Shown one piece after another: positions 7,226-7,277 of a stretch of DNA of 18,880 bases. Every line of letters begins with the position of its first letter. Within the stretch, counting starts at the first letter, position 1. Position numbers and translations under genes: made by a program. Source of the DNA: a virus (taxonomy: Duplodnaviria; Heunggongvirae; Uroviricota; Caudoviricetes); IMG/VR virus record IMGVR_UViG_3300033074_000961. The stretch is one strand, 5' to 3'. The notes under the pieces are model-generated. The model saw nothing but the letters and a program-made list of their open reading frames with translations. It was not told the origin of the DNA and did not search any database.

Positions 7226-7277
7226 GGGCGTGATGATGATTTAGTCATCTCTCTAGGTTCAAGTCCTAGCACGCCCA
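7226..7277 (+). ncRNA. Minimal 52-nt tRNA-like RNA lacking one arm
   Basis: GGGCGTG/CACGCCC acceptor, CTAGG-TTCAAGT-CCTAG T-arm, a single hairpin GATGA-TTTAG-TCATC, no encoded CCA. Confidence 0.75.

Follow-up and report, generated by a model that had tools for sequence, protein, structure and literature searches.

A canonical tRNA joins a 7-bp acceptor stem, a 5-bp T stem with its T loop, a discriminator base, and CCA to a D arm with A14 and G18-G19 and to a separate anticodon arm; position 8 is U8. Several smaller RNAs keep parts of this plan. The tRNA-like domain of tmRNA (RF00023) consists of acceptor and T arm with CCA and has no anticodon, and A-U follows its acceptor strand. Animal mitochondria contain tRNA-Ser(AGY), a three-way junction of acceptor, T arm, and one hairpin, the last a full anticodon arm that decodes. 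According to PMC11551756, no natural arm-less tRNA is known outside mitochondria; an engineered D-armless E. coli tRNA, mini HisT (62 nt, full anticodon arm), is accepted by ribosomes and was the sole success of 12 designs (PMC11551756). AlaRS, HisRS, and other synthetases act on synthetic acceptor/T-arm minihelices (review: PMC9976931). Other tRNA-like RNAs have roles away from decoding: YrlA Y RNAs of bacteria and phages (RF02553), which, with a 7-bp acceptor stem, are cut by RNase P and CCA-tailed in M. smegmatis (PMC4201824), and the plant mitochondrial t-elements (PMC1920247) and mascRNA/menRNA (RF01684), small tRNA-like folds that guide cleavage by RNase P/Z.

Here, we describe a 52-nt element, the mini-tRNA, from a window of 18,880 nt of tailed-phage DNA, and its relatives in other phage-like contigs. 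It has the acceptor and T stems of a canonical tRNA, the T loop, the discriminator, and (in 22 of 24 sequences) an encoded CCA; in place of D and anticodon arms it carries one 15-nt hairpin, with A at position 8 and no GG. The three-way junction is that of mt-tRNA-Ser(AGY) and mini HisT. Both of these have a complete anticodon arm (5-bp stem, 7-base loop), whereas the mini-tRNA, at 55 nt with its CCA tail, has a loop of 5 bases whose closing pair covaries (G-C/A-U) and belongs to phages of bacteria. It resembles the minihelices in its 7+5-bp helix, T loop, discriminator, CCA, and lack of a decoding arm; unlike them, it is natural and genome-encoded, with an extra conserved hairpin, a T arm that can be dropped, and neither Ala (G3.U70) nor His (G-1) identity. 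The tmRNA domain shares the A-U linker, but the mini-tRNA lacks G3.U70, and its closed 52-nt fold carries neither an mRNA-like domain nor a tag; RF00023 reaches at best 20.1 bits against 47 on the family, and no tmRNA was called. As a tRNA mimic in phages it recalls YrlA; it differs in having no Ro60-binding stem (RF02553, 16.2 bits against 69), and no Ro60/TROVE gene was found among the flanking ORFs scanned. Unlike t-elements and mascRNA, it lies mostly inside tRNA arrays, encodes CCA, and has a sequence-conserved loop (RF01684, 24.6 bits against 42.5); a t-element-like place at mRNA ends holds by position for about 5 loci and not for most copies.

The mini-tRNA and its family of relatives

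The features of the locus are collected in Table 1. The initial annotation had described a "half tRNA" of acceptor, T arm, and one hairpin, and each of these parts is present. The sequence folds into the expected three-way junction at -22.7 kcal/mol (z = -5.1; none of 200 shuffles did as well), with 20 nt between acceptor and T stem. Standard annotation passes it by: ARAGORN made no tRNA call on it, the Rfam tRNA model gives 20.8 bits, below its gathering score (29), and no Rfam family fits it or its relatives. The central hairpin may correspond to a D arm, as its start at base 10 would suggest, or to an anticodon arm, the sequence being compatible with both.

Table 1. Features of the mini-tRNA locus (window coordinates)
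Feature	Position	Strand	Remarks
RNA-repair genes: RNA ligase (3239-4246), cREC-family ORF, P-loop kinase (4657-5139)	3239-5139	+	upstream of array; cREC named from homologs
Sigma-70-type promoter-like site	6245-6272	+	heads operon; 11/12, extended -10; consensus match only
tRNA with CUA anticodon (amber suppressor type), first copy	6353-6429	+	
Peptidyl-tRNA hydrolase (PTH2 domain) ORF	6481-6819	+	PF01981, E 3.8e-22
125-aa ORF, no known family	6841-7218	+	ends 7 nt before mini-tRNA; anchor for finding relatives
Mini-tRNA gene, G1 to discriminator A, 52 nt	7226-7277	+	fold, family alignment A1, model R1
Acceptor stem, 5' strand	7226-7232	+	7 Watson-Crick pairs with 7270-7276; G1-C72, G2-C71 constant; pairs 3-7 covary; no G3.U70
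Linker AU (AT in DNA)	7233-7234	+	AU in 23/24, AC once
Central hairpin, 5-base UUYAG loop (7240-7244)	7235-7249	+	5 covarying pairs; loop TTTAG in window copy
Linker UCU	7250-7252	+	same in 24/24; pattern allowed YYT
T arm, 5 bp, loop UUCAAGU	7253-7269	+	loop in 22/24
Acceptor 3' strand (7270-7276), discriminator A (7277), 3-base trailer CAC	7270-7280	+	CCA not encoded here; next tRNA-like gene begins right after CAC
tRNA look-alike	7281-7360	+	anticodon arm is a 7-bp stem with GNRA tetraloop cap
161-nt RNA with tRNA-like ends	7367-7527	+	acceptor, T arm, CCA
tRNA with CUA anticodon, second copy	7534-7608	+	
157-aa ORF after array	7629-8102		>200 homologs; partial match to gp279 of Sphingomonas phage PAU

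The family comprises 24 distinct sequences in 31 copies at 21 loci, several of which are the same phage in different samples. Identity ranges from 56 to 98% (mean 71%) at invariant length, and not one of 408 stem cells (24 sequences by 17 pairs) is unpaired. Among the first 17 sequences, 13 of 17 pairs show two-sided change, and the covariation score is 0.79, compared with 0.22 for shuffled and at most 0.16 for slid partners; these tallies count changed pairs, and independent compensatory events are uncounted because the tree of the 24 is almost unresolved. The first relatives outside any RNA pattern came from homologs of the 125-aa ORF, which led to L063/L064 (same slot) and L065 (one gene further on); their acceptors and hairpins are altered yet fully paired, and the L065 copy ends in ACCA. 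A fixed-geometry pattern, which imposed G1-G2, AT, TT, and the CC-A end and fixed only 4 of the 17 pairs, returned 19 metagenome loci, 18 of which pair 7/5/5; the imposed letters are the same in the pattern-free finds, that is, the window, L063, L065, L158, and the paralogs found by model only. Those paralogs are second copies in 10 loci, retrieved by the covariance model R1 (built on 17 sequences) at 67 to 72 bits, with everything else at 37 bits or below.

Conserved features reach beyond the stems. CCA is encoded in all but the window and L063 copies (ACCA in 17, GCCA in 5), and CCA-less ends occur on other members of mini-bearing arrays too. Pair 3-70 is U-A in 15 sequences and G-C in 9, never G.U; G stands at position 19 in all 24, none of which has a long variable arm. 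A57/G59 is found in 23 of 24 mini-tRNAs versus 10 of the 82 remaining T loops at these loci. Together, the comparisons clearly point to a real element whose fold is under selection. The earlier argument that fully paired stems speak against decay is borne out by homologs with compensatory changes; the covariation search that had been proposed did find them, so the description "tRNA mimic" stands. A nonfunctional tRNA gene, decayed or recently deleted, for which one could cite the missing CCA of the window copy and the close relatives without the element, is scarcely credible: 24 diverged sequences of equal length without a broken pair and with heavy compensatory change exclude it.

Searches elsewhere returned little. 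In IMG/VR, patterns built on the exact sequence, on geometry only, or on the loop returned no match or unpaired chance matches, and a T-armless pattern gave 18 unpaired chance matches and no member. GTDB genomes yielded a single chance match, and cultured phages yielded generic T-arm matches; at the sensitivity used, the mini-tRNA is absent from all three collections. Matches to a loose T-arm pattern were ordinary tRNAs; those to a generic short-tRNA pattern were unrelated short tRNA-like elements (37 bits or less with R1). The literature searched, with subscription papers mostly outside its coverage, holds no description of the family. We regard the mini-tRNA as a new RNA family of the tRNA-mimic kind, with excellent comparative support and a putative function.

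The UUYAG loop and the optional T arm

The hairpin loop is UUCAG in 14 sequences, UUUAG in 8, and UUCUG in 2. The initial annotation had opened the closing pair to obtain a 7-base loop centred on an ochre-like TTA; that pair is G-C in 18 of 24 and A-U in 6, and the middle triplet is TCA in 14, TTA in 8, and TCT in 2. The conserved state is thus a UUYAG loop of 5 bases whose closing pair covaries, and the family does not keep to the ochre reading. The loop letters may fit a protein-binding or structural pentaloop, bases 34-37 of tRNA-Glu/Lys (UUC A, UUU A), or the stop-reading triplets UCA/UUA.

Two groups of relatives depart from the three-arm layout. At L158:6335-6371 (+), the T arm is absent and the order is acceptor, AT, 5-bp stem, UUCAG, AT, acceptor, ACCA. 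The RNA is a perfect 14-bp hairpin (z = -6.4), placed 7 nt past an ORF stop in the same slot as the window mini-tRNA; the form is one sequence from 3 samples (L158 to L160), reached through the 125-aa protein anchor. A sister class (L136:934-986 -, L145:2708-2760 +, L149:101-153 +, L148:738-792 -, and the end of L134) reads acceptor, GU, a 5- to 6-bp hairpin, CC-A, a 6-bp hairpin with a 3-base loop replacing the T arm, and R-CCA; UUCAG is kept in 2 of its 5 copies and has drifted in the others. Because L158 has no T arm and the sister class has another hairpin in its stead, the constant core, judged from these sequences, is the acceptor end plus the UUYAG hairpin, 14 layers apart, with a T arm that is conserved if present and optional. 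The earlier emphasis on an acceptor-T minihelix as the essence of the element is weakened accordingly: acceptor and hairpin are the parts that stay. A compact D arm whose G19 docks on C56 of the T loop was considered for the hairpin as a whole, on the strength of the constant G19 and a constrained T loop, and fails, given loop conservation in the T-armless form; such D-arm-like docking may occur in the three-arm form.

Elements of other kinds were seen in viral contigs as well. L047:3023-3083 (+) and L060:4216-4276 (-) hold a CCA-ended tRNA-like element with D and T arms and no anticodon arm. Short acceptor/T elements of 42 to 46 nt, outside the mini-tRNA family, occur at L061:1884-1933 (+) and in L049, L051, L035, L009, and L040; one of them ends in ACCA between tRNA genes.

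Arrays, operons, and the phage Bxz1 layout

The window comes from a large phage-like contig: an identical protein record lies on a 94.6-kb contig, and relatives' contigs span 236 to 368 kb. The sole cultured link found is gp279 of Sphingomonas phage PAU, reached through the 157-aa ORF. At the start of the window (1-37) lies the 3' end of another tRNA-like RNA, with T arm, ACCA, and a weak tmRNA match, cut by the window boundary. Window genes (code 11) stop mostly at TAA and TGA, and comparison with homologs found no internal TAA/TGA in its real genes.

Across the 21 mini-bearing loci, a CUA tRNA is present in 16, usually heading the array, and the other 5 are contigs of less than 2 kb; Pth2 was seen in 6, within the flanks covered. 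Because 2 unrelated protein neighbourhoods flank the arrays, no protein gene is a fixed partner of the mini-tRNA; the 125-aa ORF and Pth2 also occur without it. Copies are placed first, inside, and last in arrays, in tandem in L143, and alone between ORFs in L138. Close relatives differ: the element is missing from the visible arrays of L001 (a 55-kb relative), L066, and L067, the whole array is absent in L151 to L154, and L144 differs from L001 in the mini-tRNA although their preceding genes are nearly identical. The mini-tRNA is carried as a cassette, gained and lost, within arrays of other non-decoding tRNA look-alikes that an amber-suppressor tRNA heads, often after Pth2.

The arrays are rich in tRNA look-alikes with 8- to 9-base loops, tetraloop caps, or large insertions. 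The GNRA-capped look-alike that follows the window mini-tRNA is conserved at L001:4284-4363, L065:2812-2891, and L066:1557-1637 and in L067, L069, and L144. Other, full-size look-alikes, in L001, L066, and L067, carry 2 extra hairpins in the variable region. A tRNA of 181 to 194 nt, with an odd anticodon loop and a large conserved D-loop insertion sharing a CCTGCAGGAAGG core, recurs in arrays L136, L142, and L145 to L148 (for example, L147, about 3085-3265, -) and has no Rfam family. Full-size look-alikes with 8- to 9-base anticodon loops, many with UUA/CUA/UCA, were seen in L141, L145, L146, L147, L149, L137, L144, L066, and L158. A GOLLD RNA (173 bits, L147:1773-2197, -) lies about 750 nt downstream of a mini-bearing array. 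At L138:814-868 (-), as at L148:316-370 (-), a lone mini-tRNA sits between 2 ORFs, 6 nt ahead of an ATG, where processing would yield an almost leaderless mRNA.

A similar layout exists in a cultured phage, Mycobacterium phage Bxz1 (L187:8751-9510, +). Here, gp154 is a PTH2 protein (E 4e-7), with an in-frame ATG-TAG before its annotated start; it is followed by 4 unannotated, head-to-tail, anticodon-less acceptor-stem RNAs, 3 of them ending in ACCA, and then by a CUA tRNA annotated as tRNA-OTHER. In its operon logic, a Pth2 with an early TAG, head-to-tail mimics, and then a CUA tRNA, the Bxz1 locus matches mini-bearing arrays; the kind of mimic differs. The Bxz1 RNAs were rejected as family members, with 20 bits or less under R1, different folds, and no UUYAG hairpin. 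In 5 cultured phages with a standard Pth2, annotation places no array beside it.

Possible roles in host defence and translation

Anticodon nucleases target the loops of tRNA-Glu and tRNA-Lys, GNAT acetylation is reversed by Pth, and AbiEii is a nucleotidyltransferase toxin; MenT toxins extend tRNA acceptor ends. In anti-phage immunity, toxSAS enzymes choose among tRNAs by acceptor pairs and modify CCA (PMC11559606), and the ligase, kinase, and cREC genes of jumbo phages (also Pth2) have been read as counters to attack on tRNA or translation (PMC7824862). The reading that we prefer, tentatively and at a little under an even chance, is that the mini-tRNA is a mature, CCA-ended, non-decoding tRNA mimic that acts as a decoy versus tRNA-attacking host defences; a decoy was among the suggestions of the initial annotation and is plausible. 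Its parts differ in strength. Co-transcription with the array and excision by the host tRNA pathway are very probable: from the array promoter, a transcript would be cut by RNase P at G1, trimmed at its 3' end, and given CCA where none is encoded, releasing a 55-nt RNA. That this RNA is unable to read codons we hold with similarly high confidence, since a working D-armless tRNA keeps a whole anticodon arm, the mini triplet varies, and the genome needs its TAA/TGA stops. Given maturation and non-decoding, work in counter-defence as a decoy or sink is an even proposition. The acceptor end would be offered to toxins that inspect the acceptor stem and modify CCA or the attached amino acid; candidates are toxSAS pyrophosphokinases, MenT/AbiEii nucleotidyltransferases, and GNAT acetyltransferases. 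The U-rich loop, resembling bases 34-37 of tRNA-Glu/Lys, would present a target to anticodon nucleases, and the nearby ligase and kinase could repair the breaks that these make. With acceptor pairs 3-7 varied and paralogs bearing either A73 or G73, a broader set of toxins would be titrated; the patchy distribution, paralogs with different acceptors, and varied lower halves fit an arms race. Several observations count against the preferred reading: a pure acceptor-end decoy needs no invariant loop or linkers, the persistence of UUYAG in L158 after loss of the T arm suggests a specific partner, a generic decoy does not explain why the element is linked so tightly to amber tRNA and Pth2, and the window copy has no encoded CCA.

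That link is what a charged peptide acceptor would account for. An aminoacylated mini-tRNA would enter the A site of stalled ribosomes, for instance after amber read-through, take the nascent chain like puromycin, drop off, and be recycled by phage Pth2, with SmpB or a phage protein possibly replacing the missing arm. The recurring trio of amber tRNA, Pth2, and CCA-ended mimic would follow, and the intact 7/5 acceptor-T helix, which EF-Tu reads (PMC7954030), the A8-U9 linker, and the weak tmRNA similarity suit the idea. Charging is doubtful, however, because there is no anticodon-independent identity set: G3.U70 is missing, and acceptor pairs 3-7 and base 73 vary (cf. PMC9976931), leaving no clear synthetase. 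With the T arm able to be lost, Pth2 at a minority of loci within the covered flanks, and Pth2 plus CUA tRNA also present without the mini-tRNA, we rate this role as unlikely. Rather unlikely, too, is that the mini-tRNA binds or scaffolds a particular protein of phage or host as part of a small ribonucleoprotein (cf. Ro60/Y RNA) and not as a toxin sink, with the UUYAG loop as the binding site, kept a constant 14 stacked layers away from the CCA end; invariant linkers and a loop and distance kept in 3 architectures (T arm present, replaced, deleted) favour it, whereas no protein gene travels with the mini-tRNA and, as tallied against this role, the loop has drifted in 2 of 5 sister-class copies.

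RNase P measures the T arm, and the fold might serve only as a phage t-element, guiding RNase P and 3' nucleases to cleave the polycistron and set mRNA ends, with the released RNA jobless. Placement 7 nt past the 125-aa ORF stop in the window, L063, L137/L140, and T-armless L158, and alone before an ATG in L138/L148, would suit such a role, in which plant mitochondrial t-elements act (PMC1920247). Yet most copies lie between or beside tRNA genes that already give cuts, some in tandem, CCA is usually encoded, and the loop keeps its sequence even where the T arm is gone. The processing signal suggested by the initial annotation has thus become less likely as the sole role, and we deem it distinctly unlikely. 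Most improbable of the translational roles is a natural D-armless stop-reading tRNA, in which U33 is the first loop base and the triplet UUA/UCA, found in 22 of 24, would match UAA/UGA (the RF2 set) and complement the amber tRNA. A 5' U and a 3' G flank the triplet, in keeping with U33 and R37, the 2 free loop positions take almost only the 2 stop-reading values, E. coli ribosomes tolerate an engineered D-armless tRNA (PMC11551756), and several odd full-size array tRNAs have UUA-, CUA-, or UCA-containing loops. But that engineered tRNA is 62 nt long, keeps its whole anticodon arm, and was the only working design, while the mini-tRNA has its small loop with a covarying closing pair and reads UCU in 2 copies; the same letters suit UUC/UUU plus A37 or a T-loop-like motif, and window genes, ending mostly in TAA/TGA, show no need for read-through. 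Highly improbable as well is a charged arm-less adaptor on bacterial ribosomes, whose UUA/UCA loop would meet UAA/UGA or an empty A site and which would take over the nascent chain for release by the co-encoded Pth2; if true, it would be an RNA-based route of termination or rescue that bypasses host release factors, and the first natural arm-less tRNA active outside mitochondria.

Whatever its role, the mini-tRNA bears on how reduced tRNAs are viewed: arm-less tRNAs have been thought a mitochondrial oddity and minihelices a laboratory construct, and here is a natural, strongly covarying phage family, one that standard tRNA finders miss. The series from the three-arm form to a plain 14-bp CCA hairpin isolates the selected part, an acceptor end and a UUYAG loop at fixed distance. 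An RNA of 55 nt can be made at little cost, which opens its charging, structure, and toxin binding to direct tests, with Bxz1 as a cultured analogue. The recurring gene content points to an undescribed phage module of amber tRNA, Pth2, and putatively non-decoding mimics. Amber-suppressor tRNAs of non-recoded jumbo phages have been noted without a target (PMC5852040); this module may explain these orphan tRNAs.
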